Positions 1 to 26,310 of a DNA stretch of 32,000 nucleotides are shown here, in pieces; positions within the stretch are counted from its first letter, which is position 1; each line of letters begins with the position of its first letter. The position numbers and the translations under genes are program-made. Source of the DNA: Pseudoalteromonas translucida KMM 520 (GTDB lineage: Bacteria; Pseudomonadota; Gammaproteobacteria; Enterobacterales; Alteromonadaceae); NCBI RefSeq assembly GCF_001465295.1, contig NZ_CP011034.1, positions 1,980,001-2,012,000 of the forward strand, given 5' to 3'. Below the pieces are notes generated by a model. The model did not search any database and had not been told where the DNA came from. It saw only the letters and a program-made list of their open reading frames with translations.

Positions 1-346
1 CATTGATTTTTTCAAAAGAACTTCTTGAAGCTAAATATTTTGAAAACAAAGGTTCATACACTTTCTTTTCAAAGGTTTCGTCGGTGTAACCAATATCTTC
101 TAAATTACTCGATAATGACTTAAACGTATCTTCACACCAATTGCATACCTGTGCAGTTCGAATAATATGAATAGCAATTTGCTCAACTGCCATCCATTGT
201 GTTAGAAATGCCTGAGTATGATGCCCCTGCTTTTGCAATCCATTTACTTCGACTTCAATATTTACGATTAAATCATTGCCACTTTTAAGTTTTTGTAATA
301 ACCGTCTTTTAACATTAGCGTCGCTAGTCAACCTTGGAGGTGCCAT
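1..346 (-). CDS. hypothetical protein, N-terminal 115 codons only (runs off the left edge); next gene of the BREX operon after pglX'
   Basis: Hand translation of the minus strand from ATG (346-344) gives MAPPRLTSDANVKRRLLQKLKSGNDLIVNIEVEVNGLQKQGHHTQAFLTQWMAVEQIAIHIIRTAQVCNWCEDTFKSL...SSFEKIN, with no stop down to position 2. The start lies 1 nt after the pglX' stop (348-350). No family recognised, and I cannot say whether this is pglZ. Confidence 0.55.
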   Translation of the reverse strand, partial: MAPPRLTSDANVKRRLLQKLKSGNDLIVNIEVEVNGLQKQGHHTQAFLTQWMAVEQIAIHIIRTAQVCNWCEDTFKSLSSNLEDIGYTDETFEKKVYEPLFSKYLASRSSFEKIN

Positions 347-347
347 A

Positions 348-3300
348 TTAATTCACCACCTTTCCGTGGATGGCTTTTACATCGCTCAGTAAATTGCCAA
401 ATTTGCCGTAGTTAACTTTTACCCCGTCGTCGAGGTCGAGAGTAATACGTTTTTCAGCGAAGTGTTTGAGTTGTTCATCAAAAGAGCGAAGTTCGGCTTG
501 TTTTCCCCCAAGTGACTTTAAGTCTTTTTCGATAGTACGTGCTTCCGTGCCTGTGGCTTGTAGTTGTTGCTCAGATAACAAATTATATTGAGCTTCGTAT
601 GCACCAATCAGCGGTATAAGATACTCAGTACGCATACGCGACAAAGTGCTTTCGTTATAGCGATGCATATAGACTAAACACTCAAAGGCTTTTTCTTTTC
701 CTGAGCTAAATAACCAGTATATTGGCTTTCTTGCATACTTAGTGACATGTTCTTTAAAAAATTGAGTTGATAAGTATCTTCTAAGAGTATTTTCTGCTGA
801 CTCAGCCTTCTTAGGATTAATTGCATTAAGTATCAAGCTATCAGCAATGAAATTAATATTTTGGTTTAAGCTCTCAGCTCCCCAAACACTTTTTACAAAC
901 TCAACTACCCTGCCTGTTGCATCATCTTCATATACCCAAGAATCCTCTGCTAACGGCACAATTGCATCATCATCCGGCTGAAAGCTTGAGTACATTCCCT
1001 TGTTTAATACCGATTTAAACTGACTAACGTCTTGGTTTGCAAAAACCACCCCGTCACCGGTATAACTAAATCGACCCATTATGCAGCCTACAATATAACT
1101 TATTAAACTAACCACGGTATCCGATCTAAAAGTATTAAGCACCTTCGCTTTATAAGCATCAGGTTCGCTTTCGTCTAAATTCGTACCAACAGTAAAGTAT
1201 GGGTTTTTATAGAAAGACAAATCAGATGCAGATATTACTACTCGCTCATTTGCGTCAATTTGATAGCTTTCATCTACATGCTCATTTAAGCTTTGCTCCA
1301 GCGAGCTAATATAATTAACAAATTGATGTGTATCAGATTCAATCGTTAAAAAGTCATCTGCTATCAATGTCGAACTTGCCTTAAGATGTTCAAGCATAAT
1401 AGGATGGCTGCCAAACGCTATTGATGTTTCTACGCTATGCCAGTCTTCTTTTGAACACTCAACAAGTTGCTCCACAGTATCTGCAATAGCTGCTTTTTCA
1501 TCATCAACAATAGGTAACACGGCTAAATCATTTGGTCTTATTGAGCCTAAAACCCCTTCTGGATACACCGTTTTGACTAAACGGTTAAACATTGAAGAGT
1601 TTAACAAACCCAACTGAAACAACCTTGTTTGCTCATCAGTAATATTTTCACTTGGGGCAAAGCAAGGGCCTGACGCATCATAAATAGCGTCAGATGGTAC
1701 TTCTCGAGCATTAAACGTCGGCGCCAAAGCGGTCCAAGAGTTAACTTTGCTTTCTAATTGTTGATTAAGTTGACCAATTTCAGATTCCTTCGTATTTACA
1801 TAGCCATTAATGTTTCCATACCAACGCCTATACTCTCCACCTGAAATTATGGGCTTCCAACTGCCTTGTTCGCTATCTAAATCATGATTATTTAGCTCCC
1901 ACCACTGCCTAACATATTTATCACGGTCAATGTTTTTACCTGCTGGCAGTGTTGCCACACTAGACTTAAAAGGCTGCCCCAACGAAAATGCATTCTGTAA
2001 ACCTTCTGATGCCCAATACGATAACGGTTTAGTTGGAACGTTTGACATTTTCGCTAACGAGTTGCACACATTGCGTGAATTATCACAAGGAAAGCTTTTT
2101 GGTCTAGGCAAAATGTATTGCTCTTCTAATGTATCAGAGCTTTCGTCTATTTGTTTATCAATGATATCCGCATTGCTTGTAAAGCAATATCTCGCTTCAA
2201 AGCTTGGTAGGTGGCTATTTCTGATCACTACAGCATTCATTTGGTGTTGGTCAGGTATAACCCCACGGCCTAAATGAGCCAGACTGCATATTGAGTGTTT
2301 ATCAAATAAAATGTCTCGCATTTTTTCGTATCGAGACATAAACATCCAGCTATCTTTTAAAATCAAAGATGTGAAGCCATCAGGCTTAAGTAAATCTAAC
2401 GTTCTACTAAAAAACATCGTCGCCAAATTACTCTTAGTTGCAGCAAAGTCTTTTTTAGCAGCTTCTTTTAAATTAATTAACGACTCATCAGCCCCTAGTA
2501 TCCCTAAATTAGGTGGGTAGGTCACTATGGCATCATATTTTTGTTCAAGTGCTTCCTTAATGGCAAAACTATTTTTACCATCACCAATTTGCTCTGGCGA
2601 TGCTATTGCACCTAGCCCATTAGCATCAGATAGCAGCAATACATTAGGTTGGTAACCTCTTGTTAAAAAAAGTCTATCTTGTTCAGCAGATCGTAATACC
2701 AAGGTAAGGGACGATATTTGAATTGCTCGTTCATCAATATCAAAGCCCACAAGGTTATGCTCAAAAATTTCTTGCGGGATATCCCGTGCTCTAAACCCTT
2801 TTTCGAGATAAATATTCACTAAAATGTCGTACGCGAGTAACAGATTTCTTCCAGAGCCACACGCAGCATCTAAAACTTTTAATTCGCGAAGGTCATAGCT
2901 AGGTGTTGTCGCAATATTAGTAATATGCTGGTTAACTTCATCTGGTTGCTCAGCATCAGGCAAAAAATATTCCAAAGAGCTAGCAATCGTTGAATCAGGA
3001 AATAACTCAAGCCATCGTCTAGCCAAAGTATTTTCTACCATATATTGGCTGACCCACTTTGGCTCTGTCGTTTGGGTGGCTTTTGCTAGTTCCTTAATAC
3101 CTGTTTTTTTTGGTAATTCTTTTTTTATATCGGCGTAATAAGCAGAAAACAACTGATTAAACACATCAATAGTCTGCCAAAATGATTCATCTAAGCCATC
3201 TACAACAAAACGAACAATAGATTTAGTCCGCGTTAAATCAGATGGCAATAGTTCATTAACCCAGCGAGTGTCTTCACCAAATAACTTATTAATTCCCTGA

Positions 3301-3695
3301 GCGAGTTGTTCACATTGACCAAGTAACGCCATTCTAAATAGCTTTTCGTCGTGAGTTCCCTCTAAAACTAACTCTATCACCTGAGATTTGTCTAAATTAA
3401 AGTCGTCCGTTAGCTCTTCTAGGTTTTCTACAATTTGAAACGCGCTTGTTTGCAATGGGTGTGATAAAACCCTAAAACCGTGCGGTAACTTATCATTGAG
3501 CTCAAGGTATCTAATAGCGCATAAGCGGTTAAACCATGTATAGGCAGCTTGCTCTACAACTTCCTCTTCCCCAAACTTATTGATTTTTGCAATCAAATCG
3601 TCGCTCTTATCAATTAAGTTTAGCTGTGACTCAATTGCAGCTTTAAATAAAACTCGTGCTTCTAGTGCATATTTTTTTATTAATTTTAGTTCCAT
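348..3695 (-). CDS. PglX-family (BREX) N6-adenine methyltransferase paralog with a degenerate catalytic motif IV (YPPN instead of NPPY); probably catalytically impaired
   Basis: 1115-aa ORF. The N-terminus (AYTWFNRLCAIRYLELNDKLPHGFRVLS), the SAM motif I (KVLDAACGSG) and the last ~125 aa (PIYWLFSSGKEKAFECLVY.HRYNE.TLSRMRTEY...LDLDDGVK.NYGKFGNLL.DVKAIHGK) are collinear with the neighbouring PglX. Motif IV reads AIVTYPPNLG (YPPN = 2508-2519). Confidence 0.8.
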   Translation of the reverse strand: MELKLIKKYALEARVLFKAAIESQLNLIDKSDDLIAKINKFGEEEVVEQAAYTWFNRLCAIRYLELNDKLPHGFRVLSHPLQTSAFQIVENLEELTDDFNLDKSQVIELVLEGTHDEKLFRMALLGQCEQLAQGINKLFGEDTRWVNELLPSDLTRTKSIVRFVVDGLDESFWQTIDVFNQLFSAYYADIKKELPKKTGIKELAKATQTTEPKWVSQYMVENTLARRWLELFPDSTIASSLEYFLPDAEQPDEVNQHITNIATTPSYDLRELKVLDAACGSGRNLLLAYDILVNIYLEKGFRARDIPQEIFEHNLVGFDIDERAIQISSLTLVLRSAEQDRLFLTRGYQPNVLLLSDANGLGAIASPEQIGDGKNSFAIKEALEQKYDAIVTYPPNLGILGADESLINLKEAAKKDFAATKSNLATMFFSRTLDLLKPDGFTSLILKDSWMFMSRYEKMRDILFDKHSICSLAHLGRGVIPDQHQMNAVVIRNSHLPSFEARYCFTSNADIIDKQIDESSDTLEEQYILPRPKSFPCDNSRNVCNSLAKMSNVPTKPLSYWASEGLQNAFSLGQPFKSSVATLPAGKNIDRDKYVRQWWELNNHDLDSEQGSWKPIISGGEYRRWYGNINGYVNTKESEIGQLNQQLESKVNSWTALAPTFNAREVPSDAIYDASGPCFAPSENITDEQTRLFQLGLLNSSMFNRLVKTVYPEGVLGSIRPNDLAVLPIVDDEKAAIADTVEQLVECSKEDWHSVETSIAFGSHPIMLEHLKASSTLIADDFLTIESDTHQFVNYISSLEQSLNEHVDESYQIDANERVVISASDLSFYKNPYFTVGTNLDESEPDAYKAKVLNTFRSDTVVSLISYIVGCIMGRFSYTGDGVVFANQDVSQFKSVLNKGMYSSFQPDDDAIVPLAEDSWVYEDDATGRVVEFVKSVWGAESLNQNINFIADSLILNAINPKKAESAENTLRRYLSTQFFKEHVTKYARKPIYWLFSSGKEKAFECLVYMHRYNESTLSRMRTEYLIPLIGAYEAQYNLLSEQQLQATGTEARTIEKDLKSLGGKQAELRSFDEQLKHFAEKRITLDLDDGVKVNYGKFGNLLSDVKAIHGKVVN
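351..730 (-). repeat. direct repeat copy A: 3' end of pglX', roughly 80% identical by eye to 4162-4541
   Basis: By-eye alignment finds long identical runs, e.g. cctttccgtggatggcttttacatc, gtacgcatacgcgaca and cctgagctaaataaccagta. Weaker homology continues about 1 kb into both genes. Boundaries are approximate. Confidence 0.8.
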
Positions 3696-4157
3696 TTACT
3701 TATTTCCCTTTAAGCTAATTAGTTCATGGTGAACTTTCCAAAAGTCAGCGGCCTTAAATAGTCCAAATAGCTTTATTTGATTCGAAAAGCGGTGTTCAAA
3801 AACATACCAATTTATTTTTCCAAACTTAACTTTCTTTATATCAGCATGACCCGCAACATTTCTTATATGGTAAAAATAACTTTTCAGAATATTATTTTTG
3901 GCATTATGAAAATGTATTACGTTTTTGCTCTCAATATTAAGGTTTAAGTCAAACGTATAAAACTCAGCTTTAATTAAATCTAAGTTTCCATGAGGTATTA
4001 AATCGAATGCATACTGCTCTTTTAAACGCTTGTAAGCTTTACTTGAGCGAATATTAAAGCGCTGATTAAGCAAGTCACCATTTTCCCATAAAAGAATTAG
4101 CCGCTCGTAAAAGTCGGCTAATTCTTTACGGGTAAAATGCTGCGGATTGCAGTTCAC
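3696..4157 (-). CDS. small (153 aa) protein embedded between two pglX genes; candidate minimal HEPN-domain RNase (RNxxxH motif)
   Basis: The ORF abuts both neighbours: its stop directly adjoins the pglX' start, and its start is 1 nt from the pglX stop. Sequence YFYHIRNVAGHADIKK contains R99-N-V-A-G-H104 (3846-3863). This matches the HEPN Rx4-6H signature with the common N after R, located in the C-terminal half of a ~150-aa protein. Function is inferred from motif and context only. Confidence 0.5.
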   Translation of the reverse strand: MNCNPQHFTRKELADFYERLILLWENGDLLNQRFNIRSSKAYKRLKEQYAFDLIPHGNLDLIKAEFYTFDLNLNIESKNVIHFHNAKNNILKSYFYHIRNVAGHADIKKVKFGKINWYVFEHRFSNQIKLFGLFKAADFWKVHHELISLKGNK

Positions 4158-4158
4158 G

Positions 4159-7100
4159 TTACTTCACCGCCTTTCCGTGGATGGCTTTTACATCAGCTAA
4201 TAGGTTGCCGAATTTTCCGTAGTTGGCTTTTACGCCGTCGTCTAGGTCAAGCGTAATGCGCATTTCGGCGTAGTGCTTTAACTGCTCATCGAAAGCGCGC
4301 AGTTCGGCTTGTTTTTTCTCAAGCGACTTTAAGTCTTTTTCAATACCACGAGATTCTGTGCCTGTGGCTTGCAGTTGTTGCTCGGAAAGGAGTGTATGCT
4401 GAGCCTCGTATTTACCCATTAGAGGCGTAACGTACTCGGTACGCATACGCGACAGCGTACCTTCGTTATAGCGGTGCAGATAAACTAAGCATTCAAAGGC
4501 TTTTTCTTTACCTGAGCTAAATAACCAGTAGATAGGGCGTTTTTTGTAGGTCTTGCAATGATCTTTAAAGAATTGCGTTGAGAAATAACGACGAACGGTA
4601 TCCATCGCACTTTCGCCCTTCTTAGGCTTCAATGCATGTAAACATAAAGTTTCAGCTACAAATTCTAGGTTTTCCGATAAGTGTTCGACACCCCAGACTT
4701 TTTTTACAAATTCTTTAAAGCGAGATGTTGCATCGTCGTCAAACAACCATTCTTCTGAGGCTAGTGGAATAATACTGTCATCGTCGGCAGTGAATGACTT
4801 GTAAACTCCGCCTGTTAGAAGGTCTTTAAAACCTTTATTACCAGAGCGTGCGTAAACTAACCCATGCATATCAAGAGAGTAGCGTCCCATCATGCAACCT
4901 AGACAGTATGACAGAAGTTCGCATAATGTATCTGAGCTAAAAATACTGGCGACACTCTCTTTTTCTTTTACATTAGAGTATCTATATTGAGCATTTGCCA
5001 GCAATGTAATATCGGAAATTTCTTTTTGAGTAGATACATCATCTACCCCCAATAACTGCTCTGAGTGAGCATCTATCTCAGTCTCTAATTCTAGTAATAA
5101 TTCTGCGCGACTATGCGACGAAATAAAATAATTCGACATAGATTCAGACAACAATTTGCCCGAACTCTTTTCAACCAATGGAGAAACTTTGAAGTCAGGT
5201 GATGTTTCAAATAAATTAAAATCTTCACGAGATATATCTATAGCTTGGTCAGCAAATGTTTTAAGTTTTTTGTCACTATAAACAGCGTCAGGTACTGGTA
5301 TTTTTGAAATGTGCCCACTCTGAAAGTCAAGAGTTGCAGACAAAACCTTTAGAAAGCTTGTCACAATTCCTGAGTTTAAATATCCTAGTAAGCTTGATAT
5401 ATCCCCGTCTTTAAAAATACAGGGGCCTGTAGAATCAAAAATAAAGCCTTCTTCAAAATAACGAAAAGAAGGTTTAATTCCAATACGCGTCCAATTTATT
5501 CCTTCTTTGAAAAAGTTTTTTGAATTTCTTAAGTTTGATTTAGGAAAAGATTTTAACTCTTTGCCGTCTTCATCCCAGTTAATTACAAACTCTCTATTCC
5601 CATACCAACGTTTAACACCACCACCTTTTAGGTACGGAACCCACTTTACGGAGCTTTCTATTTCAAACCATGCTCTGAGAAATTTTTCGTTATCCCCAGT
5701 ATCTATTCCTTTTCCAGCACTTGCGCTTAGAGATAAGGGTTTGAATCGTTCGAAACTGTCCCTTAAGCTATCACTAAGCCAATAAGCAATTGGACTTCCG
5801 CTAATTTTTTCAAATTCGTTGTTATTTACAAAGTGAGTTCTTTCATTTTTACTAGATGTAAATAAAACTCCTTTATCCGCAGACTGTGACCCACTATTTA
5901 GATCAATATAACTCCCCAAATAATTAGGAATGTGGTGATTTGAGAACGTTAAGCAGCTTCCCAGAGCAATTTTTGAATTCAAAGAAGGAAAGCTATTAAA
6001 CCCTATATGATTGATGTTCAGTAACGTAGATTTTGTCAACAATTTCTTTCTAAACTCATCAAATGACGACAAAAACATCCATCCTTGAATTGTGATAAAG
6101 GAGGCGACTCCAGTTTTTGCTAATTGTTTTTTTGCAGCTATGACAAAACAACTATATAAGTCTGATTTTGCTTCAGAATAGTTTTTGGATACGTATGCTT
6201 TCAACTCTTTATTCATGCCATTACTGCCCATGTATGGAGGGTTAGCAATAATGCAATCATAGTTTTGAGCTAGCGCTATAGATTGACATATTAAAGGAAA
6301 CAGTATCATTGACGCTTGCTTGCCAGCAGGATCAGGCCCTTGGATTTTATTTTTCAGCTCAGCTTTAAGTGCCAAAAGGTTATTTATCAATTGATGATCG
6401 ATATCTATAAGAGAGCCACGTGTTTTTGCTTGTAAAAAGGACGACTTTAGGGCTTGCAGTAGTTCAAAATAGTCTTTGTAAATACTTGTTGGTTGAATAA
6501 ACTCTTCAGGTGTATCAAACAAGCCTCTTGTGACACCTGCTTGTTGATTACCTTCTAAATCCAAAGCCTTCCATAATTTCGTAATATCAAGGTGTTCAGT
6601 AGATTGCAGCGAGAATACGTTTAATGATACTTCACCATCTTCAACTCGTTGAAAGATGCGCCTGTCGTCTTCACGCGCTTTCATCATTAATGCAAAACCA
6701 GCAAGCTGCGCCGCCCGATCATCAATATCTAAACCATAAATGTTCTTGGTAAGGATTAGTTCGGGTATTTCACGAAGGCGGTAACCACGTTCAAGATAGA
6801 TTTCACGCAATACTTCATATACTTCAACTAAAATATGACCTGAGCCACAGGCAGGGTCGAGCACTTTAATTTCTTCTGGGTCTATACTGGTTGGCGTTAT
6901 AGCTTTTAGCTGTTCAATAACATCTTCAGACTGCTCAGCAGGTTCAATGTAATATTCCATTTTGCCTTTAAGCTCTGAGTCTGGGTAAGTGGCTAACCAT
7001 TGCCTACCCACAGAGTTTTGTACTAGGTATTTGACAATCCAGTTTGGCGTAAATAGCTGAGTGGCTGCTGGAATGTCTTCTGACTTAACGACTTTACCGA

Positions 7101-7821
7101 TAACAGCGTCTTTATGCTCTGAAATGTAAAACTGATATAGCCAACCGATAACTTCAATTTCTTGCCAGTCTTCCTCTGGGATATCGTTGATTAACCCTTT
7201 TAGGATAGAATCTGTTTTAGTCAGGTTATTAGGTAACAATAACTCTGTTGCATCATCAATCGCCTCAAACGCTAAGCCTTTAAAGATCTGAGGCATAATT
7301 TTAGCTAATTGATGACATTGGCCTAATAGCAATTCACGATACAGCTCTTCTTCTTTATCACCGGCTAGTTGCAACTCAATAATATGGTCTTTATCTAAAT
7401 TTAAACTTTCAGCTACATCGGATGCATGATTTAAGATTTCAGGTAGGCTATCGGCATTACTAAGATGGCTCTTTACAGGGGAAAGCACACGAAAACCATG
7501 ATCAAAGTAGTCATGTATTTCCATATAACGCAGTGCTGCGAGGCGATTAAACCATGTATAGGCCATTTCACGGGTGAACATATCGTACTTTTCTTGGTAG
7601 GTCGCAGACGCACGTTCAGCAATTTTGCTTTCTAAACGCTTACGTTGCTCACCTTCTTTGCGAGTAAAAGCACGGCCTTCGATTATGGCAGCCCCGCCTT
7701 CAATGCGAACTTCTGCTATTCGGTCTTCATATATACCAAAGTGAGCAGCACGCTTTCTAATGGCTTCAATAAATTGTTTACGCGCTTTAGGTGCGTATGC
7801 TTTTAAGTTTTTAGTGTTCAT
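4159..7821 (-). CDS. pglX: BREX type 1 N6-adenine DNA methyltransferase PglX
   Basis: 1220-aa ORF directly downstream of brxC. Motif I is KVLDPACGSGHILV and motif IV is CIIANPPYMGS (NPPY = 6232-6243). PglX-typical GWLYQFYISEHKD and ATQLFTPNWIVKYLVQNS are present. Size and position fit pglX. Confidence 0.9.
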   Translation of the reverse strand: MNTKNLKAYAPKARKQFIEAIRKRAAHFGIYEDRIAEVRIEGGAAIIEGRAFTRKEGEQRKRLESKIAERASATYQEKYDMFTREMAYTWFNRLAALRYMEIHDYFDHGFRVLSPVKSHLSNADSLPEILNHASDVAESLNLDKDHIIELQLAGDKEEELYRELLLGQCHQLAKIMPQIFKGLAFEAIDDATELLLPNNLTKTDSILKGLINDIPEEDWQEIEVIGWLYQFYISEHKDAVIGKVVKSEDIPAATQLFTPNWIVKYLVQNSVGRQWLATYPDSELKGKMEYYIEPAEQSEDVIEQLKAITPTSIDPEEIKVLDPACGSGHILVEVYEVLREIYLERGYRLREIPELILTKNIYGLDIDDRAAQLAGFALMMKAREDDRRIFQRVEDGEVSLNVFSLQSTEHLDITKLWKALDLEGNQQAGVTRGLFDTPEEFIQPTSIYKDYFELLQALKSSFLQAKTRGSLIDIDHQLINNLLALKAELKNKIQGPDPAGKQASMILFPLICQSIALAQNYDCIIANPPYMGSNGMNKELKAYVSKNYSEAKSDLYSCFVIAAKKQLAKTGVASFITIQGWMFLSSFDEFRKKLLTKSTLLNINHIGFNSFPSLNSKIALGSCLTFSNHHIPNYLGSYIDLNSGSQSADKGVLFTSSKNERTHFVNNNEFEKISGSPIAYWLSDSLRDSFERFKPLSLSASAGKGIDTGDNEKFLRAWFEIESSVKWVPYLKGGGVKRWYGNREFVINWDEDGKELKSFPKSNLRNSKNFFKEGINWTRIGIKPSFRYFEEGFIFDSTGPCIFKDGDISSLLGYLNSGIVTSFLKVLSATLDFQSGHISKIPVPDAVYSDKKLKTFADQAIDISREDFNLFETSPDFKVSPLVEKSSGKLLSESMSNYFISSHSRAELLLELETEIDAHSEQLLGVDDVSTQKEISDITLLANAQYRYSNVKEKESVASIFSSDTLCELLSYCLGCMMGRYSLDMHGLVYARSGNKGFKDLLTGGVYKSFTADDDSIIPLASEEWLFDDDATSRFKEFVKKVWGVEHLSENLEFVAETLCLHALKPKKGESAMDTVRRYFSTQFFKDHCKTYKKRPIYWLFSSGKEKAFECLVYLHRYNEGTLSRMRTEYVTPLMGKYEAQHTLLSEQQLQATGTESRGIEKDLKSLEKKQAELRAFDEQLKHYAEMRITLDLDDGVKANYGKFGNLLADVKAIHGKAVK
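4162..4541 (-). repeat. direct repeat copy B: 3' end of pglX
   Basis: See copy A. Both copies have the same orientation (direct, not inverted). A second shorter shared block lies at the 5' ends (ttaaaccatgtataggc at about 3527-3543 and about 7547-7563). Confidence 0.8.
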
Positions 7822-7846
7822 ATTTCACCTTAAATGTCATCCGTGA

Positions 7847-10800
7847 TTATCTGATACGCACTTTATTGTTGCTATTAACTAATGTCGTTAGTTTTGCTTT
7901 TAGTGCTGATAAGTAGTCCTCAATATCTTGCTCGGTTTCTATCACACCAGCGGCATTTACCTCTCGCATCACACTTGAGGTATCAACAGAAACTATTTTT
8001 TTCGGTGTTGGTTTTGCTACTTTTTTTGGCTCAGTTTTTGTTGGTTTGTAGTTACCACTTTCTGAGTCTATACCTGAAGCTGATGCTGGTTCGGGGGCTT
8101 GTTTAGCCTTTTGTGCTACTTCTTTGGCTTTTTGCTCTGCGAGTGCTTGCTGTTGTTCAATGAACTTATTGATTAGTTCGTAGGCATCTTCTTCAAGTGT
8201 GGCAGCTTCAGTGATCTCTTGATGTATTTCAGCAATTCCTTGCAGTGTATCAACACGCTTTTTAGCATTTTGTAGTGGGTAAAGCGCTTTATTGCTAATA
8301 TCGCTGTTTACCGCGCCAGCGGCTTTAATTTGCTCAGTTACATGCTCGATACGAATATCGATTCTTGCCTTTGCATGAGTGCGCTTTTCAGTTAACAAAG
8401 CCTCGTTAACTTTGTTTACACTTTCAATAAGCGGTTCTACTTCGCGTATGTCACGGTACGGGCGCTCTTTATTAAAAATAGATTCTAACTTTTGCAGCGC
8501 TGCTATCGCATTTTCCTCTTTTTCGAGTGCTATGCGGTTGCGGTCAAAGTCGATAGTGAGTGCTTTGTACAACTTTTGCCAAGTTGAAAATTGAGTTTCG
8601 TAGAAGTTTTCAAGATCTTGGTAGTCTTCTTCAAAATCAAGTAGCTCATCACCATTAGCGAGGAATGATTCAATAAACTGATAGCTTGATTGCGCTTCAA
8701 TTAAACCCGCCAGTAATACTCGGCCATTCTCAATATCTTTAACACCTGGGTAATGCCCCGTTGATGCTTTGTTTGCAAAGCCATCAAGCTTCTTTTTCAT
8801 GGTGCTTATATTAGTTTGAGCAATGTTGAACAGCTCTTTTTCACTGTCTGGAGCATTTTTACCAAACACGTTTTTAAACAATTTAGCCGCACGGTTTAAG
8901 TTAGCTTCAGACTGTTGTTTAATACGTCGAATACGAAGCTCTGCGCGCTTTCTAACTTGTGTTAGATTGTCGTATGCACTTTTTAAAGGGACTTCTTGTT
9001 GACGCATTTGAAAGCAAATTTTGTTAGCTAATGCTAAACGCGAAATGATTAAAATTATTTCTTCATCATTCCAACCAAATGGACGTTTTGAAAAGCGTTT
9101 TACAATGTCTTCTGCGGTAATTGCTCTGCCAGTGTCATCGCCAAGGGTTATGAACTTTTCTACTTCTAAAGACGCTAACGGATTTATTTCATCAGCGTTT
9201 AAATCGAGACCAATTTGACTAACATCGTCTGCAACTAAGGTATTTTGAATCTCGCGGCGAATATCACCTGGAAATGGTTTAACTAACTTTAATTTACTGA
9301 ATGTGTTTTCAATTACGTAGCGATAAAGCTCTTGAAGTATTGAGCTTACCGCTCCGCCTTTTGGATTTTGTTTAGAGCCTAATGCGTAAAATTCAGCATC
9401 TTTTAGTAGCTCCTCTACTTCTCCTATCAAGCGGCGATTTCGATCTTGGTTTTCTGTCGCTTTTTGATGAAGTAACTGTTGTTGTTCTGGGCGTTTACCA
9501 GAGTTGCCGCGTAAAAACTTACTTGTTCGAATAAACGTTTCGATGTCTCTGAATACTCTGTTATTTTCAGCCAACTTGATGATTATCGAGCCACTATCAC
9601 CGTCCATTGAACGATTAGCACATACGGTAGATGTATATTCATCGTAGTTGGGATCTCTAGGTGTGATCACTTTCACTACTAAGTCGTTTTCTTGAGAGCC
9701 ATCTCGTGGACTACCATTACAAAAACGGCTGATAGGGAAATCTTGCTTGTTTTCAGGGTAGCGATAGTTCGCTTCACGACGCAGCACATCATCAAAAATT
9801 AGATCGCTAATCTTCTTAGTTTGATCAGATAACTCTATTTCAGTTTTTTGAATTTCCTGCTCAATTTCTTTTTCTTCGTTAGTAAGGAAAATGTACTCGT
9901 CACCTTGGCGAGCGATAAGCATATTAAGCTCTAGAGCATTTAAAGCCTGTTCAATTTCGCGCCTTAACGCTAATCGGTCTTCATCGACTTTGCCTACACA
10001 CAGGGTAACTAAGTTATCTAACGTTGACTTAATTACATCGACATAACGAATTAAAAACAGGGTTTTTAATATATTCAGCGTAAACGGCGATATAGATTCT
10101 TTAACGGATGCTTGGTCGATATCTTTTTTAACCGATGTATCGAGGAAACTTTCGATAGCTGGGTAGAAAAAATATAACGGAATTAGAACTCCGACATTTT
10201 CATTTCGGACTTGTTTGGCAGCACTTTGGAATGCATCTAACAAAGATCGCTCACCACGGCTTAAATGTAAGCCTGTTGCACCCGCTTTACGAATAGCTTC
10301 AAATATTTTTTGAACTAAAATATAATGATAAGGTACAAATGGATAGCTATTAATAAAGCTACTTGCATCTTTATAGTTAGCTAACTCAGCGGTTGTTGTA
10401 CTGTCAAAAGCTAACTGGTTTCTTAGAATGTCACCCTTTTGATCATACAAGTCCTGGAGCTCAATACGAGCCGCCTCTTCTTTTGATAGCAGGCGTTTCT
10501 CTATCACCTCACTGGTGTTTGAGCTTGAAAGAGATAGGCGTTCAAATCGGCCTTGGATTTTTGAGAAATCATGACCTTTTGAGCCTGTCATTTGCCCAAT
10601 TACTGCATCGATGTCTTCTTGAGAAGTAACAACGACCCAAGCACGGCCTTCACAAATAGTACCGAGGTTTTCAGTGATTGTTTGAAGTTTCAGCATCATC
10701 TGGGCGTTGTTACCAATGAACTGCCCCACTTCATCCACAAAAAACAACACTCGGCGGTCTGAGCTTACATCTAGGTATTCTTTTACCCATTTACAAAAGT

Positions 10801-11536
10801 TGCTAACGTCTAACGTGAAGTTGTTTTCAAGTTGCTCAACCCACTGCCTTGCTGATTCAGTTGATTGATTAGTTACCTTACCAAGCGCATCTGCCATGTC
10901 GTCTCGGAAGAAGTCGTAAGCATCTCTTTCTTCTATCCAGTTAGCAGACGCTAACGCATTGAACTCTTTTTTGAACTGTTCAAATACACCTCGTTGGTCT
11001 AATTCGCGTTCAAGGTGCGCAATATGAGGGTGATCTCCACTGAAGCCCATTTGCTCGTTAAAAACTTTTAAGAACACTTTTAATATTGCATCATCGCCGT
11101 CATCTGTGTTGGCACGGCTGTCGATATTAAAAAGGATGACGGTATTATCTTTGGTAACCGCAGTGTCTATTTCACCTAATAAGAAGCCATCTAGGTTTTT
11201 ATCTTTGAAAAACTCGATAGCTGATTTATCAAACTCACCGTTTGTCGCTTGAATGTTTTGTAAAAGGTATGACAATATTTTGATGAAGTGAGATTTACCT
11301 GAACCAAAAAAGCCACTTACCCAGATCCCTAATTTACCTGATGCAGCTTTTGCTTTTGGATCACGCACTGAAGGCATATACGCATCGAAGAACTCTTCGA
11401 AGTGTTTTGCTAATTCGGTGGTGATTACATATTCATCTAGCTCGGTAAAAACAGTGCTGTTTTCTAATTGGTCAGCTTTTACAACACCATTAATTGGTCG
11501 GTTTATATCTTTAGTAAATAAGTCTTTAATTTGCAT
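7847..11536 (-). CDS. brxC: BREX ATPase BrxC (P-loop NTPase)
   Basis: 1229-aa ORF with Walker A GFFGSGKSHF and Walker B VLFFVDEVGQF. It lies between the two small brxA/brxB-sized genes and pglX. A lysine/proline-rich low-complexity linker sits near the C-terminus. Confidence 0.9.
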   Translation of the reverse strand: MQIKDLFTKDINRPINGVVKADQLENSTVFTELDEYVITTELAKHFEEFFDAYMPSVRDPKAKAASGKLGIWVSGFFGSGKSHFIKILSYLLQNIQATNGEFDKSAIEFFKDKNLDGFLLGEIDTAVTKDNTVILFNIDSRANTDDGDDAILKVFLKVFNEQMGFSGDHPHIAHLERELDQRGVFEQFKKEFNALASANWIEERDAYDFFRDDMADALGKVTNQSTESARQWVEQLENNFTLDVSNFCKWVKEYLDVSSDRRVLFFVDEVGQFIGNNAQMMLKLQTITENLGTICEGRAWVVVTSQEDIDAVIGQMTGSKGHDFSKIQGRFERLSLSSSNTSEVIEKRLLSKEEAARIELQDLYDQKGDILRNQLAFDSTTTAELANYKDASSFINSYPFVPYHYILVQKIFEAIRKAGATGLHLSRGERSLLDAFQSAAKQVRNENVGVLIPLYFFYPAIESFLDTSVKKDIDQASVKESISPFTLNILKTLFLIRYVDVIKSTLDNLVTLCVGKVDEDRLALRREIEQALNALELNMLIARQGDEYIFLTNEEKEIEQEIQKTEIELSDQTKKISDLIFDDVLRREANYRYPENKQDFPISRFCNGSPRDGSQENDLVVKVITPRDPNYDEYTSTVCANRSMDGDSGSIIIKLAENNRVFRDIETFIRTSKFLRGNSGKRPEQQQLLHQKATENQDRNRRLIGEVEELLKDAEFYALGSKQNPKGGAVSSILQELYRYVIENTFSKLKLVKPFPGDIRREIQNTLVADDVSQIGLDLNADEINPLASLEVEKFITLGDDTGRAITAEDIVKRFSKRPFGWNDEEIILIISRLALANKICFQMRQQEVPLKSAYDNLTQVRKRAELRIRRIKQQSEANLNRAAKLFKNVFGKNAPDSEKELFNIAQTNISTMKKKLDGFANKASTGHYPGVKDIENGRVLLAGLIEAQSSYQFIESFLANGDELLDFEEDYQDLENFYETQFSTWQKLYKALTIDFDRNRIALEKEENAIAALQKLESIFNKERPYRDIREVEPLIESVNKVNEALLTEKRTHAKARIDIRIEHVTEQIKAAGAVNSDISNKALYPLQNAKKRVDTLQGIAEIHQEITEAATLEEDAYELINKFIEQQQALAEQKAKEVAQKAKQAPEPASASGIDSESGNYKPTKTEPKKVAKPTPKKIVSVDTSSVMREVNAAGVIETEQDIEDYLSALKAKLTTLVNSNNKVRIR

Positions 11537-11571: not shown

Positions 11572-12177
11572 TTACGGTACTAGTTTAAATGCACGATAAT
11601 AGTTATTTGATTCGATTCTGCCAAAGGGTTTTAACGCTGTACCGTCGTACTCACCAGGATAGAAAAGTACCGTTGGTACGTTGCCTACCTTAGCATGTAG
11701 AGCGTTTAATAAGCCGTGGCCACGAATAATAGGCCACGCGCTCCCAAGCCCATGAAGTAAAATGAACTCAGTTTTGTTTTTTTCACAAGAGCCGAAGTCT
11801 ATTTTTGAGGCGATAAATTCAGCGACTCGGTTTTGCTCAAGAGGCCCCTTTAATGCGTTGAATAACGCGTCATCACCGCGCTCTTTTTGTACTTTAAATG
11901 CTCTTTCAGTAAGTTTGCGGGAATCGAGCAATTCAATAATGGCTTCAAACAAGTTGATGCTTTTAAAATTACGCCCACGTTTATCAAGGCGCTCTGTCAT
12001 GTATTCTAAATGCTCTCTTACAGTCAATTCTGACTCTGGTGGGTAGTCAAATACGTAAAAGCCAATCTCGTTTCCTAAACCTTGGTTTTTTAAAAAATCT
12101 TCGCTTTCAATCTTGGGCTGAATTTCATCAAGCCGCTCATGAAGTCGTTTTTGTTGTTTAGTTTTAAGCTCAACCAT
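11572..12177 (-). CDS. brxB: BREX protein BrxB (DUF1788-type), assigned mainly by size and synteny
   Basis: 201-aa ORF. Its start overlaps the brxA stop by 1 nt (TAATG), and it lies immediately upstream of brxC. Confidence 0.7.
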   Translation of the reverse strand: MVELKTKQQKRLHERLDEIQPKIESEDFLKNQGLGNEIGFYVFDYPPESELTVREHLEYMTERLDKRGRNFKSINLFEAIIELLDSRKLTERAFKVQKERGDDALFNALKGPLEQNRVAEFIASKIDFGSCEKNKTEFILLHGLGSAWPIIRGHGLLNALHAKVGNVPTVLFYPGEYDGTALKPFGRIESNNYYRAFKLVP

Positions 12178-12800
12178 TAGTGCAACTCCATCGCTGAAAT
12201 AATATCGTCTCTGTTGATCTCTAGAAGCAAGTCTCTCACTTCTGGTAACAAATATACATTTTGTATTTTTTTATTCCGTGTTGTTTCTATATAACCAGCG
12301 TCAGCTATGGTTTTAAAAGCTACTTGAGATATTTTGTAAGTCGATGATTGTGACATTTGAGCTAACTCAGGGAATAATCTAATGCGTTCATCCCAAAAAG
12401 ACTCCCAATCAGCTACATCTAAACTTTCACGGAACATACGTTTAGCATCTAACACTACATTGCGCATAAAATCAGCAAGTAATGTGCAGTTAATTAACGT
12501 AGCTGCAAACATTAACTGAGTTGATAGCTCAGTGCTACCAAATGCGATTAGTTCTAGGTATTTGTCTGACATATCTTCTAAACGCTTTTTGATAGTAGCC
12601 GCATTCCTCTTTGCTGAAGCGTCAGAGCGTTTTTGTAAAATATTTTGGTTTACAATGGCTTCTAACCACTCTTTTTGTGACGGTTTTTTAAGTAATAGCT
12701 CAGCGACTGTCTGACTTTCTTTGATCATTAAGCTGCCACCAATAAGGTCGCCAAGGTAGTCTTTGTATGAATTCATTTGTATTATGCTTGGAGTCGTCAT
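12177..12800 (-). CDS. brxA: BREX protein BrxA (DUF1819-type), assigned mainly by size and synteny
   Basis: 207-aa ORF. It is the first structural gene after the WYL regulator, abuts the brxR stop codon and overlaps brxB. Confidence 0.7.
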   Translation of the reverse strand: MTTPSIIQMNSYKDYLGDLIGGSLMIKESQTVAELLLKKPSQKEWLEAIVNQNILQKRSDASAKRNAATIKKRLEDMSDKYLELIAFGSTELSTQLMFAATLINCTLLADFMRNVVLDAKRMFRESLDVADWESFWDERIRLFPELAQMSQSSTYKISQVAFKTIADAGYIETTRNKKIQNVYLLPEVRDLLLEINRDDIISAMELH

Positions 12801-13688
12801 TTATAGTTCTTCCAATTCAGGCACATAACCAGGAGCAATTGCTAAGTTTTCTGCGCCGAAAAGGGTTTGACGGTTTTTGAGCCACAGTTGGTATTCAGCA
12901 CCAACAAGTTCTGCATCAGCGGTACAATCAACATTCCAACGTCTCAATAAATAACCAGCCATAGCAGCCCTCACATTCAGCGACAGTTTTCCTCCGTCCA
13001 TTCCATAGTCTAATGCGATTGCAGTAGGATGACTTACGTTATGGGGGTGAGGAACGAGTTGTAACGGCATCATGCGCATCCAATGGTGGTCGCTTATTTT
13101 GACTTCTAAAGGTTGTATCTCTGAATATTCTAATACGGCCTTTGTAATTCTAGTTAATACAAAATCCCGAAAACTGTTAGATTTACGATCATAAGCTCTC
13201 ACATGCCAGCGCAAACCATTATCGACGATACTGTGGGGAACGATATCTCTTTCTCCTGAGCCGCTACTTAGGGAGGTGTAAGTGATATTAACTGCTTTTT
13301 GATTAATTACTGCTTGAACCAACTTTGCGACAATAAAAATATCAGGAATATTTAACTGGCTTGGCGCTTCGACGGGGAATGTCGTATCGCCAATAGCATC
13401 AAAGCCATCGGTTATTTGGTTAGAAAGTTTTACAAGGGTTTTGCGAGGGTCATGTGTGAATAAGGGCCTAAAGCCCGCAGCTTGAAAATATCTCTTTTCT
13501 TTTGAGTCATATACCATATTTTCAGGGCACAACTCTTTATAGAGATTGATATCACGAGTAGCCGAGGTTAACCCTTTCTCGAAATAAGAAACTATTTCAG
13601 CTCTCGTAACATATCCAACAAAAAAAAGTTTAAAATCAATGTATGACAAACGTTGTTTTTGAGTAAAGCCAATATTGTTTAAATTCAT
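12801..13688 (-). CDS. brxR: WYL-domain transcriptional regulator, BrxR-like
   Basis: 295-aa ORF at the head of the BREX operon. The N-terminal region resembles a winged HTH (QRLSYIDFKLFFVGYVTRAEIVSYFEKGLTSATRDINLYKE). The central segment GLRWHVRAYDRKSNSFRDFVLTRI is typical of WYL domains. Size and position match BrxR-type regulators of BREX loci. Confidence 0.7.
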   Translation of the reverse strand: MNLNNIGFTQKQRLSYIDFKLFFVGYVTRAEIVSYFEKGLTSATRDINLYKELCPENMVYDSKEKRYFQAAGFRPLFTHDPRKTLVKLSNQITDGFDAIGDTTFPVEAPSQLNIPDIFIVAKLVQAVINQKAVNITYTSLSSGSGERDIVPHSIVDNGLRWHVRAYDRKSNSFRDFVLTRITKAVLEYSEIQPLEVKISDHHWMRMMPLQLVPHPHNVSHPTAIALDYGMDGGKLSLNVRAAMAGYLLRRWNVDCTADAELVGAEYQLWLKNRQTLFGAENLAIAPGYVPELEEL

Positions 13689-14256: not shown

Positions 14257-14508
14257 ATGATTAAAAATGAATTTACTTTGCTTTCTGCTAAAGAACTTTC
14301 AAGCTTTATTAAGTTCAGCCCAGATTACATTAACCGTAAGTTGAAAGACAATGTTTTTTTTGAGGGTGAGCATTACATTAGACCTTTTGGATCAAGAAAA
14401 ATACTTTACCTTTTAGAAAGTGTAATGGAAGAAATGTACAACACCACGTATAAAGCTGAGCGCGAATTTGTCATTCCTCTCGCAAGTGGAGGTGTATGTT
14501 ATGGCTAG
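14257..14508 (+). CDS. excisionase/AlpA-like small DNA-binding protein (recombination directionality factor candidate)
   Basis: 83-aa ORF immediately upstream of the integrase and overlapping it by 8 nt. LLSAKELSSFIKFSPDYINRKLKDNVFFEGEHYIRPFGSRKILY resembles the Xis/MerR-type HTH-plus-wing pattern. Confidence 0.55.
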   Translation: MIKNEFTLLSAKELSSFIKFSPDYINRKLKDNVFFEGEHYIRPFGSRKILYLLESVMEEMYNTTYKAEREFVIPLASGGVCYG

Positions 14509-15712
14509 TGTAAGAAGCCGAAACGATAAGTTGTTTTTTGATTTTTATTATCAAAATATACGATGTCGTGAGCAGACCTTACTCAAGGATACAAAAGCTA
14601 ATCGTATCAAACTTGAGAAAGTTCTAGAAAATATTGAAATTCAAATTATGCTCGATCGTTTTGTTTACCGAGATATGTTTCCGAATAGTAACCGCTGCAA
14701 GGCATTTAAACTGTTTGATGACCAGATAGAAGCTATAAAAGCTAATGAAACGAATAAAGCTGATGTTATTTTACAGAATGTACCTAACTTCGAGGCATTT
14801 GCTTATGAGTGGCTAGAAGAAAGTAAAATTCATTGGAAAATTAGTCATTTTAAAAATGTGTCTATGATCTTTGAGCGTTATTTAATTCCTGAATTTGGCA
14901 AGTTTAATCTTGATGAAATAAGCCGTGCTCATATTATTAAATATCGCGCGGGCATATTAGAGCCTAAGCGTAGTAGTAAAAAACAATTGAGTAATGATTG
15001 GATCAATCATGTTATGACACCTCTTAGAGGCATACTTAAAGAAGCGTCATTACGTTATGATTTTCAAACTCCTTTTAACAATATAAAACCACTAAAAGTA
15101 GTTAAAACCAAGATAGAACCTTTTTCACTCAATGAAGTTCAGCAATTTCTTAAGTATGTAAGAAGTGATTTTCGTAATTATTATACCGTTCGCTTTTTTA
15201 CTGCGATACGAACAGCAGAGATTGATGGCCTCAAGTGGGAATACGTTAACTTTGATCGAAATGAAATTACTATTCATGAAACCTTAGTTGATGGCAATGT
15301 TGAGACACCTAAAACAGCCACATCATATAGAAATATCCAGCTATCTAGAGTTGTTGTTGATGCATTAAAAACACAATTCAAAATAACTGGTAAGAACACT
15401 TATGTTTTTTGTAATAAAAAAGGTAACCCTCTTGATCATCGAAATATAACTAAAAGGGTATGGTATCCAACGCTAGAAGAGCTCTCTTTAAAGAGGAGAC
15501 GCCCTTATCAAACAAGACATACATGCGCAACCTTATGGCTTTCTGCTGGTGAAAATCCTGAATGGATAGCTAAACAAATGGGTCACAGCACGACTAAAAT
15601 GCTATTTGAAGTTTATAGCCGTTATGTTCCAAACAATACTCGACAAGATGGTAGTGCTTTTGATCGCCTACTTCTAAATGCCAACATTGAAGAAGAGGCT
15701 ACTTATGAATAA
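14501..15712 (+). CDS. int: tyrosine site-specific integrase with N-terminal arm-binding domain
   Basis: Start chosen at ATG 14501 (MASVRSRNDKLFFDFYYQNIRCRE, an arm-type DNA-binding domain pattern), preceded by GGAGG. Catalytic signature: AIRTAEIDGLKW (R), KTATSYRNIQL (K), TRHTCATLWL (R-H), MGHSTTKMLFEVYSRY (H, Y). Confidence 0.9.
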   Translation: MASVRSRNDKLFFDFYYQNIRCREQTLLKDTKANRIKLEKVLENIEIQIMLDRFVYRDMFPNSNRCKAFKLFDDQIEAIKANETNKADVILQNVPNFEAFAYEWLEESKIHWKISHFKNVSMIFERYLIPEFGKFNLDEISRAHIIKYRAGILEPKRSSKKQLSNDWINHVMTPLRGILKEASLRYDFQTPFNNIKPLKVVKTKIEPFSLNEVQQFLKYVRSDFRNYYTVRFFTAIRTAEIDGLKWEYVNFDRNEITIHETLVDGNVETPKTATSYRNIQLSRVVVDALKTQFKITGKNTYVFCNKKGNPLDHRNITKRVWYPTLEELSLKRRRPYQTRHTCATLWLSAGENPEWIAKQMGHSTTKMLFEVYSRYVPNNTRQDGSAFDRLLLNANIEEEATYE

Positions 15713-16562
15713 CTATATCTATGGTTGGTTAAAAAATTTACATATTAATGGTACTTTGCCAACAGCCAATTGTGAGCTATTGATAAGTAAGCAAATAATT
15801 TACGCTATTACATCTGCTGATATTGCTAGAAAATGCCAAATAGTGTCTGGCTTAGCTCAATTTCAGTTAACTCACGATATAATGGGTAATCATGTTGTTT
15901 GTGATATAGAGCCTATACTTTCTCAATGTAACGAACAGCAGTACCTTAATTTAACTTCGATGATAAATAATACAAATGAGCATTTAATAGCACGATTTTT
16001 TAAGCTGCTTAGCTTTGTCACATGCAGTGAGTTGCAGCCTTTTATTGATTTTATTTTAACTAAACAAAGCATTTTACAAAAATTCATACAAGCACCGGCT
16101 AGCCTAAACCACCATCACTCTTATACTCATGGATTGTTTGAGCACAGTATAGAGGTAGCTGAAATTGCATTTAATAATGCTAAACACTTAAATCATTCCA
16201 GTATTGAATGCCAAGCTGCATTAGTAGCTGGCTTATTTCACGATATTGGTAAAATATTTGTCATGCTACATCAAGCCAACGATCGCTACATACCAGGACC
16301 ACACGAAGGTTATAACTTTGCTATCTTAGCTGAACCTTTAGCGAAGCTAGGCAGTCGTAATAGGCAATTGCTGGAGTTATTAAGCAGTTTATTAGCAGCC
16401 AAGCCATCTGGCTATCAAGCGAGATATGCAATTGAGCATATTGTGCAACAAGCTGACCGATGCTCTTCTGAATCAGCTTTTATACATGCTAAATTTCAAG
16501 AGCTTCCTGATTATTACCATTTTTGTAAAGTTGGCGATAAAGTTCTTAAAAGAATGAGTTAA
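15705..16562 (+). CDS. HD-domain (metal-dependent phosphohydrolase superfamily) protein, translationally coupled to the integrase
   Basis: Start chosen at ATG 15705 (GAGG 6 nt upstream), with an 8-nt overlap of the int stop. Motifs HHHSYTHGLFEHSIEVAEIA and VAGLFHDIGK give the H...HD signature. Confidence 0.75.
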   Translation: MNNYIYGWLKNLHINGTLPTANCELLISKQIIYAITSADIARKCQIVSGLAQFQLTHDIMGNHVVCDIEPILSQCNEQQYLNLTSMINNTNEHLIARFFKLLSFVTCSELQPFIDFILTKQSILQKFIQAPASLNHHHSYTHGLFEHSIEVAEIAFNNAKHLNHSSIECQAALVAGLFHDIGKIFVMLHQANDRYIPGPHEGYNFAILAEPLAKLGSRNRQLLELLSSLLAAKPSGYQARYAIEHIVQQADRCSSESAFIHAKFQELPDYYHFCKVGDKVLKRMS

Positions 16563-25455: not shown

Positions 25456-26310
25456 TGTGAACTTCCAACAGTTGTAATGAGTGATCGTGGTATACCTACC
25501 TCATATAGACATATGCATGGTTTTGGCTCACACACCTATAGTTTGTGGAGTGAAGCCGGTGAGCGCTTTTGGGTGAAATTTCATTTTCGTACACAGCAAG
25601 GTATTAAAAACTTAACTGATACAGAAGCTGCTGAAATAGTCGCTATGGATCGTGAAAGTAATCAAAAAATTTATTTGAATCGATTGAGCGCGGCGACTTC
25701 CCTAAATGGAAATGTATGTGCAAATTATGCCTGAAGCCGAAGCTGATAACGTGCCGTATCATCCTTTTGATTTAACTAAAGTATGGCCTAAAGGTGATTA
25801 CCCACTGATTGAAGTAGGTGAGTATGAGTTAAATAAAAACGCTAATAACTACTTTGCCGATGTAGAGCAAGCTGCTTTTTCACCGAGTAATTTAGTACCT
25901 GGAATTGGCGTATCACCCGATAAAATGCTGCAAGCCCGTTTAATTAACTACGCTGATGCACAGCTCTACCGTGTAGGTGTGAATCATAATCAAGTGCCGG
26001 TAAATCAACCTCGCTGCCCTGTTAATAGCAATGCGCGCGATGGACAAGGCCGCGTTGATGGTAACTATGGGCAAGGCCACACTACGACTTCCGTGAAGAC
26101 GATAGCGACTACTTTAGTCAGCCACGCGCTCTTTTTAACTTAATGAATGATGAGCAAAAACAAGCGCTATTTAGTAATACGGCGGCACAAATGGGTGATA
26201 CCTATGACTTTATTAAATATCGTCATATTCGTAACTGTAATCAGTGCGATCCTGCCTATAGTGAAGGTGTTGCTAAAGCCCTTGGGATGACTGTTTCTGA
26301 TGCAATATAA
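25456..26310 (+). pseudogene. catalase (monofunctional, small-subunit type) pseudogene: 5'-truncated, at least three frame changes and an internal deletion
   Basis: Three frames join into catalase sequence. Frame 1: [47 protein letters not shown]...ESNQK. Frame 2: ([15 protein letters not shown]). Frame 3: [87 protein letters not shown]. Then, after a further frame change, [32 protein letters not shown]...DPAYSEGVAKALG and a stop at 26308-26310. The N-terminal ~190 aa, including the heme-pocket region, are absent. Confidence 0.85.

Follow-up and report, generated by a model that had tools for sequence, protein, structure and literature searches.

What part might a protein of 153 amino acids (aa) play when its gene sits directly behind the methyltransferase gene of a phage-defense operon? 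The question arises in Pseudoalteromonas translucida KMM 520, in a 32,000-nucleotide (nt) stretch of contig NZ_CP011034.1 that was analyzed as a whole and is referred to here as the window. Its minus strand carries a type-1 bacteriophage exclusion (BREX) operon, brxR-brxA-brxB-brxC-pglX, recognized with Pfam, PADLOC, and NCBIfam. The small gene, orf153, follows pglX and precedes pglX', a degenerate paralog of pglX. An initial annotation of this DNA had suggested a HEPN RNase guarded by the two flanking methyltransferases in the manner of PrrC. We arrive at a related reading, to which we give about an even chance: orf153 may be a BREX accessory gene encoding a HEPN-family auxiliary or backup RNase effector that is checked by a neighboring protein.

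The orf153 gene and its junctions

The features closest to the gene are as follows.

4159-7821, minus strand: pglX, BREX-1 adenine methyltransferase with NPPY intact (NCBIfam BREX_1_MTaseX)
4155-4161, minus strand: pglX stop/orf153 start junction (TAA 4161-4159, one spacer base at 4158, GTG 4157-4155)
4077-4142, minus strand: predicted RNA hairpin (inverted repeat) over orf153 codons ~6-27 (minimum free energy and shuffled z-score of region 4065-4185)
3696-4157, minus strand: orf153, putative divergent pEK499_p136-like ("HEPN") family protein, 153 aa (open reading frame, homologs, substitution rates, hhalign)
3693-3698, minus strand: orf153 stop/pglX' start junction (TAA 3698-3696 abuts ATG 3695-3693)
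348-3695, minus strand: pglX', PglX paralog with degenerate motif IV and an internal deletion (NCBIfam/Pfam, alignment to pglX)

The database entry PTRA_a2155 / WP_058373558.1, annotated as a hypothetical protein, has the same sequence as the orf153 product (100% identity). In comparisons with six orthologues, the ratio of nonsynonymous to synonymous substitution rates (dN/dS) comes to 0.04-0.17, which marks orf153 as a genuine gene under purifying selection; a spurious open reading frame (ORF) was rejected on this ratio and on the conservation of homologs. The GTG start is supported by an N-terminus, MN-N-PQ, conserved in all homologs. A separate horizontal origin was also rejected, as the G+C content at third codon positions is 0.318, compared with 0.32-0.33 in the neighboring genes.

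The initial annotation had remarked that the coding frame touches both pglX genes, and this proved accurate: a 1-nt spacer separates it from pglX, and its stop codon runs straight into the pglX' start (TAAATG). The 1-nt spacing after pglX recurs in the related loci L002, L011, L012, L013, and L014 (3 nt in L001), and the zero-spacer junction with pglX' recurs in L013 and L014. In L002, L006, L010, L011, and L012 the place 3' of orf153 is instead occupied by the start of a superfamily 2 (SF2) helicase gene. No promoter-like or terminator-like sites were found at either orf153 boundary. This spacing and the absence of such signals indicate that orf153 probably trails pglX as a cotranscribed and translationally coupled gene.

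The 121-nt stretch that holds the hairpin (4065-4185) has a minimum free energy of -45.9 kcal/mol (z = -5.7), and the hairpin overlaps the most conserved orf153 peptide, ELADFYERLILLWENGD. Its pairs are kept in nine orthologues mostly via synonymous G-U wobble changes, with few true compensatory changes, and this conservation is confounded by the near-invariant amino acids. The hairpin might serve to keep synthesis of a potentially toxic protein low; alternatively, the pairing might only reflect the conserved amino acids.

Conserved residues and family assignment

Two elements of the predicted protein stand out in homolog alignments.

3846-3863, minus strand: R99-N100-V101-A102-G103-H104, the Rx4H motif within HIRNVAGH, predicted catalytic core
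4083-4085, minus strand: codon of E25, candidate acid of the active site, in the WE motif that closes helix 10-25

HIRNVAGH had been located correctly by the initial annotation (R99 to H104 at 3863 to 3846), which took Rx4-6H as a HEPN signature. In a single sequence the motif is not beyond chance. It is weak evidence because 72% of shuffled versions of orf153 contain Rx4-6H (34% contain Rx4H and 4% RNx3H), and the other proteins of the window hold 0.44 Rx4-6H per 153 aa. Conservation is the real evidence, and here the two residues stand: in alignments of 33 and 49 homologs, with identities from 80% down to 19%, E25, R99, and H104 are the sole invariant columns. N100 is found in at least 90% of the members of both alignments, and all 16 close homologs (49-81% identity) retain the motif. 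The family thus displays what is expected of a HEPN motif, an Rx4-6H with a polar residue after the Arg.

In HEPN domains, as described in PMC3710099, the motif is found where core helix 3 ends and the next loop starts, and the conserved acidic residue, when present, is in the N-terminal helices. In the structure predicted for orf153 the motif occupies the last turn region of helix 90-103, at its C-terminus, with H104 as the first residue beyond the helix, so that the model has a HEPN-like placement of the motif at a helix end and loop start together with an N-terminal acid. We infer that E25 and R99-N100-x3-H104 most likely form the active site of a metal-independent endoribonuclease, an activity that HEPN proteins usually exert as dimers sharing a composite site.

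Pfam, NCBIfam, and PADLOC held no direct match to orf153, nor did the PDB sequences, and the only PHROGs match (E = 0.21) was to a PHROG of unassigned function. Profile searches of PDB sequences with the close-homolog and family alignments returned chance matches only, among them multicystatin and ZFAT zinc fingers. Thirty-eight small proteins were recovered when 1.84 billion cluster representatives were searched exhaustively with a profile, and the close-homolog profile reached one of them, P0038, at E 2.5e-6 in the same 1.84 billion proteins. The Pfam family PF18736 ("HEPN pEK499 p136") is matched at E≤1 by 26 of 33 relatives. P0038 scores 28.1 bits, above the gathering score of 26.6, and near misses include P0044, P0053, P0054, and P0056 at 25.7-26.2 bits and P0055 at 23.1. 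The other families matched by more than one relative, RiboL-PSP-HEPN (three) and Hypoth_Ymh (two), are both HEPN; DUF4145 was matched by one. When the orf153 subfamily was aligned with the Pfam-positive group using hhalign, the probability was 99.2% over 133 columns. From the Pfam matches of the relatives and this alignment we therefore assign orf153, by sequence comparison, to a divergent and unannotated branch of the pEK499_p136-like family, and the HEPN family membership suggested by the initial annotation finds support in this homology. A tblastn search of P0038 against PLSDB plasmids gave no match.

The likeness to PF18736 members extends to their size (~150 aa), their mostly standalone form, an h-L-R-N-x-x-A-H motif two-thirds along the protein, an N-terminal acid, and a restriction-modification (R-M) or Pgl operon context. 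Unlike those members, orf153 and its 16 close relatives are missed by the Pfam model at E≤1 and constitute a separate marine branch fixed directly 3' of pglX.

Published precedents

The initial annotation knew of no HEPN module embedded in BREX. This novelty claim was wrong, because two papers already report HEPN genes embedded in BREX or Pgl operons. PMC3710099 (Anantharaman et al. 2013, Biol Direct 8:15) describes pEK499_p136 genes embedded "in a few instances" in Pgl operons with PglX, PglY, PglZ, and a Lon-type ATPase, and RloC HEPN genes similarly embedded. The role proposed there is suicide or cleavage of phage RNA, and the analogy with PrrC is drawn for R-M-linked HEPN genes. More recently, PMC12839542 (NAR 2026) catalogued standalone HEPN genes in BREX core loci as backup suicidal effectors. 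Like orf153, these are small standalone HEPN-type genes within a core BREX operon, flanked by core genes, with a second-line role when PglZ or BREX is neutralized. Unlike the orf153 locus as analyzed here, the catalogue is generic, and the paper gives neither a mechanism nor a partner for the HEPN genes. The accession of orf153, that of its orthologue in Pseudoalteromonas sp. T1lg48, the organism name, and the term "pEK499" were not found in the accessible supplementary text of PMC12839542. The accessible texts of both papers make no mention of a pEK499_p136-type gene paired with a small SF2 helicase or with a degenerate PglX paralog.

Gene order in related loci

Related loci have the following gene orders.

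L002/L005 (Pseudoalteromonas sp. T1lg48): pglX, orf153, helicase, BnzA-BnzB (Bunzi), pglZ, brxL
L011, L012: pglX, orf153, helicase
L010: pglX, two genes, orf153, helicase
L001: pglX, orf153, three genes (one Hsp70-like), helicase, pglZ, brxL
L006 (Paraglaciecola sp. MB-3u-78): pglX split by IS66 and IS21, then intact orf153, helicase, pglZ, brxL
L013, L014 (orf153 ~90% identical): pglX, orf153, pglX', PDC-M26A/B
L003/L004: SbcC-like ATPase, PglX-like gene, one gene, orf150, SIR2-like gene

The position of orf153 after pglX is conserved in nine distinct BREX-type architectures, the window and eight more. The initial annotation had rightly placed the gene inside BREX; it lies in an operon of the restriction-modification type, here between pglX and pglX' of a type-1 BREX system. 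Its description of two flanking methyltransferase genes was right for the window, as both are PglX, and too broad as a rule: the sandwich is limited to one clade (the window, L013, and L014), and an SF2 helicase lies downstream in six other loci.

This helicase is compact (ResIII/DEAD/Helicase_C, 440-449 aa). Its start abuts or overlaps the orf153 stop in five of the six loci (L002, L006, L010, L011, and L012) and lies three genes downstream of orf153 in L001; the L006 copy bears a C-terminal zinc ribbon. It weakly matches type IV and type I restriction helicases, PbeA, and HamB. It was not found in the window, nor in the 10 kb downstream in L013 and L014. In L006 (region 1-8465), pglX has been broken into a 527-aa N-terminal and a 555-aa C-terminal piece by insertion sequences of the IS66 and IS21 (IstA/IstB) families.

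Comparison at the DNA level locates the boundary of the conserved block. The window and L002 share a pglX-orf153 block of 86% identity, which ends at the orf153 stop. With L013 and L014, the identical stretch starts in the 3' part of pglX, takes in orf153 and pglX', and breaks off shortly beyond the stop of the latter. From these breakpoints it follows that orf153 travels with pglX and that variable cargo starts after it; the gene appears to be the left edge of a variable cargo region between pglX and pglZ. In L001, L002, L010, L013, and L014, the BREX interior from brxC to pglZ is a hotspot of defense cargo, with Bunzi (BnzA/B), Schlafen/AlbA_2, and HATPase_c_4-Fic_C genes in L002, PsyrTA, PDC-M26A/B, and PDC-M21A/B in L013, GmrSD in L014, and the Hsp70-like gene plus two unknowns in L001.

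More distant relatives occupy other settings. P0044, one of the near-threshold PF18736 matches, is encoded inside a locus of SNF2-restriction endonuclease, DUF1156 methylase, OLD-ABC, and DUF499 genes, the BREX-related "Hma" system, with a helicase adjoining. A search for loci of the Pfam-positive subgroup gave 20 metagenomic loci, none with BREX genes, so linkage to BREX characterizes certain branches and not the family at large. A 140-aa branch of the family is found in L020, L022, L024-L029, and L032 (human-gut and other metagenome contigs) with no BREX genes near; in these loci the 140-aa gene is repeatedly followed by a BspA-type leucine-rich repeat (LRR) protein of ~390-530 aa and then by an AAA_14/DUF4143 ATPase. 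A HEPN-MNT toxin-antitoxin arrangement was rejected, as no minimal nucleotidyltransferase (MNT) family was reported among the neighbors in those related loci that have Pfam data.

The degenerate paralog PglX'

The upstream copy, pglX, matches NCBIfam BREX_1_MTaseX with 1317 bits and has an intact ANPPYMG. PglX' (1115 aa) is 39% identical to it and retains the S-adenosyl methionine (SAM) motif I, DAACGSG; TYPPNLG replaces ANPPYMG, and ~120 residues between motifs I and IV are missing. Copies 91% identical to PglX' are encoded in L013 (10463-13810) and L014 (3971-7315), where pglX is only ~65% identical to that of the window, and in all three loci PglX' has lost NPPY and kept SAM motif I. Because PglX' is this similar while pglX has diverged so far, it looks like a conserved, probably non-catalytic PglX paralog and not a decaying duplicate. 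A literature search gave no obvious description of a tandem degenerate pglX.

At their 3' ends, pglX' and pglX share a direct repeat (348-647 and 4159-4458, with blastn extending to ~981 and ~4749) of ~300-600 nt and 75-79% DNA identity. As this identity far exceeds the 39% protein identity elsewhere, the repeat suggests either gene conversion or constraint on a C-terminal domain common to both proteins. It could also be a recombination substrate able to delete or install the orf153-pglX' block.

Proposed function and alternatives

We propose that, once BREX is inhibited or overwhelmed, orf153 would serve as an auxiliary or backup RNase and cut RNA of the host or the phage, a role already proposed for the family in Pgl/BREX operons. 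We speculate that its activity may be restrained by a partner encoded alongside, in most relatives the compact zinc-ribbon SF2 helicase. In the clade of the window, the restraining partner might be the catalytically degenerate PglX', and PglX itself might conceivably contribute. Obligatory silencing by full-length PglX is disfavored because in L006 pglX is broken and orf153 intact. The frequent helicase partner suggests an alternative sensor.

Several results weigh against a HEPN-family effector of BREX. The PF18736 model misses orf153 itself even at E≤1 (gathering cutoff 26.6 bits), and the best relatives barely reach its threshold. No biochemically tested pEK499_p136 family member is known to us. 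There is no conserved small antitoxin gene beside orf153, and other distant relatives are encoded in non-BREX settings, beside BspA-type LRR proteins, AAA_14/DUF4143 ATPases, or a GmrSD/HNH gene. The predicted fold adds to these points. AlphaFold models of orf153 made with 16 sequences (predicted local distance difference test, pLDDT, 82) and with 49 sequences (pLDDT 92.2, predicted template modeling score 0.88) have the same topology, with helices at 10-25, 40-49, 59-68, 90-103, and 136-147 and strands at 51-56, 79-84, 107-112, 115-124, and 127-135. This alpha+beta arrangement, five helices of 10-16 residues and a five-stranded sheet, is not a plain four-helix up-down bundle. Searching PDB with each model and BFVD with the better one, Foldseek returned nothing at E≤1e-3, and no HEPN structure was among the 50 best matches in PDB or BFVD. 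The four-helix HEPN bundle that the initial annotation had proposed to look for was therefore not seen, and neither was any significant structural neighbor.

One could accordingly ask whether orf153 is a HEPN RNase at all. The protein may have a distinct alpha+beta fold in which the E/R-N/H residues serve ligand, DNA, or nucleotide binding or some other catalysis, and may serve PglX or the helicase as a subunit with a structural or regulatory role. We consider this improbable. It would account for a confident model with a five-stranded sheet and no structural neighbor, and the weak top Foldseek matches (best TM-scores ~0.2-0.28) are to sensor-type folds, namely Roadblock/MglB, profilin, and GAF/PAS-like, and not to nucleases. 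The HEPN label of PF18736 itself comes from sequence-profile inference only. Yet an R-N-x3-H motif with a polar residue behind the Arg, placed where a helix ends and accompanied by a conserved acid, is the exact HEPN signature as set out in PMC3710099, and members match four HEPN Pfam families, with no unrelated family matched by more than one member. The same paper describes a beta-hairpin directly after the motif in Csx1, which shows that a HEPN core can accommodate beta-inserts there. Overall, the modeled fold leans against a canonical HEPN domain and might still contain a HEPN core with beta inserts as in Csx1; homology supports the HEPN-family assignment, and a canonical predicted fold does not.

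If orf153 is an effector, the helicase raises the possibility that the two form an autonomous two-gene module, in which, much as in Hachiman, the helicase would sense nucleic-acid intermediates and hold back or release the nuclease, and which is lodged between pglX and pglZ outside the control of PglX and whose helicase has been replaced or displaced in the clade of the window. This seems to us somewhat unlikely. The helicase occurs in six loci, abutting or overlapping orf153 in five, the L006 pair is intact despite the pglX destroyed by insertion sequences, and P0044 also lies beside a helicase. Hachiman (HamA and HamB) likewise joins a small effector gene to an SF2 helicase, and the orf153-side helicase weakly matches HamB models. 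However, HamA is a PD-(D/E)xK DNase of another family than orf153, and the orf153-side helicase is about half the size of HamB, has a zinc ribbon, and is embedded in BREX, not autonomous. That the window lacks the helicase, as do the 10 kb downstream in both L013 and L014, also speaks against a fixed pair, as do the DNA-identity blocks, which tie orf153 to pglX and not to the downstream genes. Among the loci examined, the pair was seen solely in BREX loci; no such system is in PADLOC, and the matches to PbeA, HamB, and the type IV and type I restriction helicases are weak.

The guard arrangement of the initial annotation holds that orf153 is a latent RNase bound and silenced by PglX and/or PglX' and released when a phage inhibitor engages the methyltransferase; PglX' would then be a decoy for anti-BREX proteins such as Ocr. 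Coupling of orf153 to pglX, and in the clade of the window also to pglX', is conserved, and the orf153-pglX' block is ~90% conserved while pglX is 35% divergent and the cargo farther downstream is not the same. PglX' has SAM motif I and lacks NPPY in three loci, as would be expected of a non-catalytic binder, and the PrrC analogy for R-M-linked HEPN genes is the standing hypothesis in PMC3710099. PrrC and RloC resemble orf153 in being encoded, as HEPN-type Rx4-6H nucleases, in operons similar to R-M systems, and the concept of a latent RNase released on inhibition of the defense would be the same. In contrast, they are large proteins in which an N-terminal ABC-type nucleoside triphosphatase (NTPase) regulates the nuclease, whereas orf153 is a 153-aa single domain with no P-loop and, in Pfam and NCBIfam, no NTPase domain, so the PrrC-like architecture did not hold. 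The host system of PrrC is type Ic R-M; that of orf153 is BREX. Simple silencing by PglX also fits poorly with L006, where orf153 is intact although IS66 and IS21 split pglX, and most loci that carry orf153 lack PglX'. The guard is unproven and partly contradicted, and we rate its chances as low.

Elements of these alternatives might also be combined. The pEK499_p136-like family, orf153 with it, could depart from the classical HEPN and have an unseen alpha+beta fold with a convergent or radically remodeled E...R-N-x3-H site, paired here with a dead PglX' as decoy for anti-BREX inhibitors and with a zinc-ribbon SF2 helicase sensor in sister clades, as a modular guard layer at the 3' end of pglX. 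We regard this as a long shot.

The BREX locus and its surroundings

The remaining features of the operon, and an ORF at the edge of the window, are listed below.

12801-13688, minus strand: brxR, WYL domain (Pfam, PADLOC)
12177-12800, minus strand: brxA (Pfam, PADLOC)
11572-12177, minus strand: brxB (Pfam, PADLOC)
7847-11536, minus strand: brxC (Pfam, PADLOC)
1-346, minus strand: partial ORF (ATG 346-344) running off the window edge, 115 aa visible

The window ends downstream of pglX', and pglZ and brxL, if there, fall beyond coordinate 1; both were found downstream in the related loci L001, L002, and L006. The partial ORF begins 1 nt past the pglX' stop and has no Pfam match. We rejected the idea that it is PDC-M26A, the gene that follows pglX' in L013, as the two sequences are unrelated; because they are, the cargo 3' of pglX' varies among strains.

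On its other side, the BREX locus adjoins integrase genes at 14468-15712 and 16596-19703. The former encodes a tyrosine integrase with an Arm-binding domain, and an HD-domain protein is encoded at 15678-16562. Three overlapping large minus-strand ORFs (1035, 845, and 192 aa) follow, extending to 22785, the first with a weak integrase-domain match. The integrase, HD-domain, and large-ORF neighbors suggest that the BREX locus is located on an integrative island. Farther away, a plus-strand ORF of 145 aa (25706-26143) matches only positions 251-372 of a 383-position catalase model and looks like a catalase gene fragment.

Significance

How BREX blocks phages, and how it withstands inhibitors (Ocr, SAM lyase, and OrbA among them), are questions to which embedded second-line effectors are one proposed answer. 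Within this framework, orf153 is a new, unannotated example of an already published idea and not a new kind of system, and because the idea of BREX-embedded HEPN genes is already in print, a positive result would confirm rather than overturn it. The locus offers a compact, well-delimited test case: a protein of 153 aa, with three candidate catalytic residues that never vary, whose gene is translationally coupled to pglX and occurs in natural versions with a small helicase next to it and with a dead PglX paralog next to it. Since we know of no characterized pEK499_p136 member, characterizing orf153 would test a twelve-year-old prediction and, with it, whether this family of atypical fold is a family of HEPN RNases.

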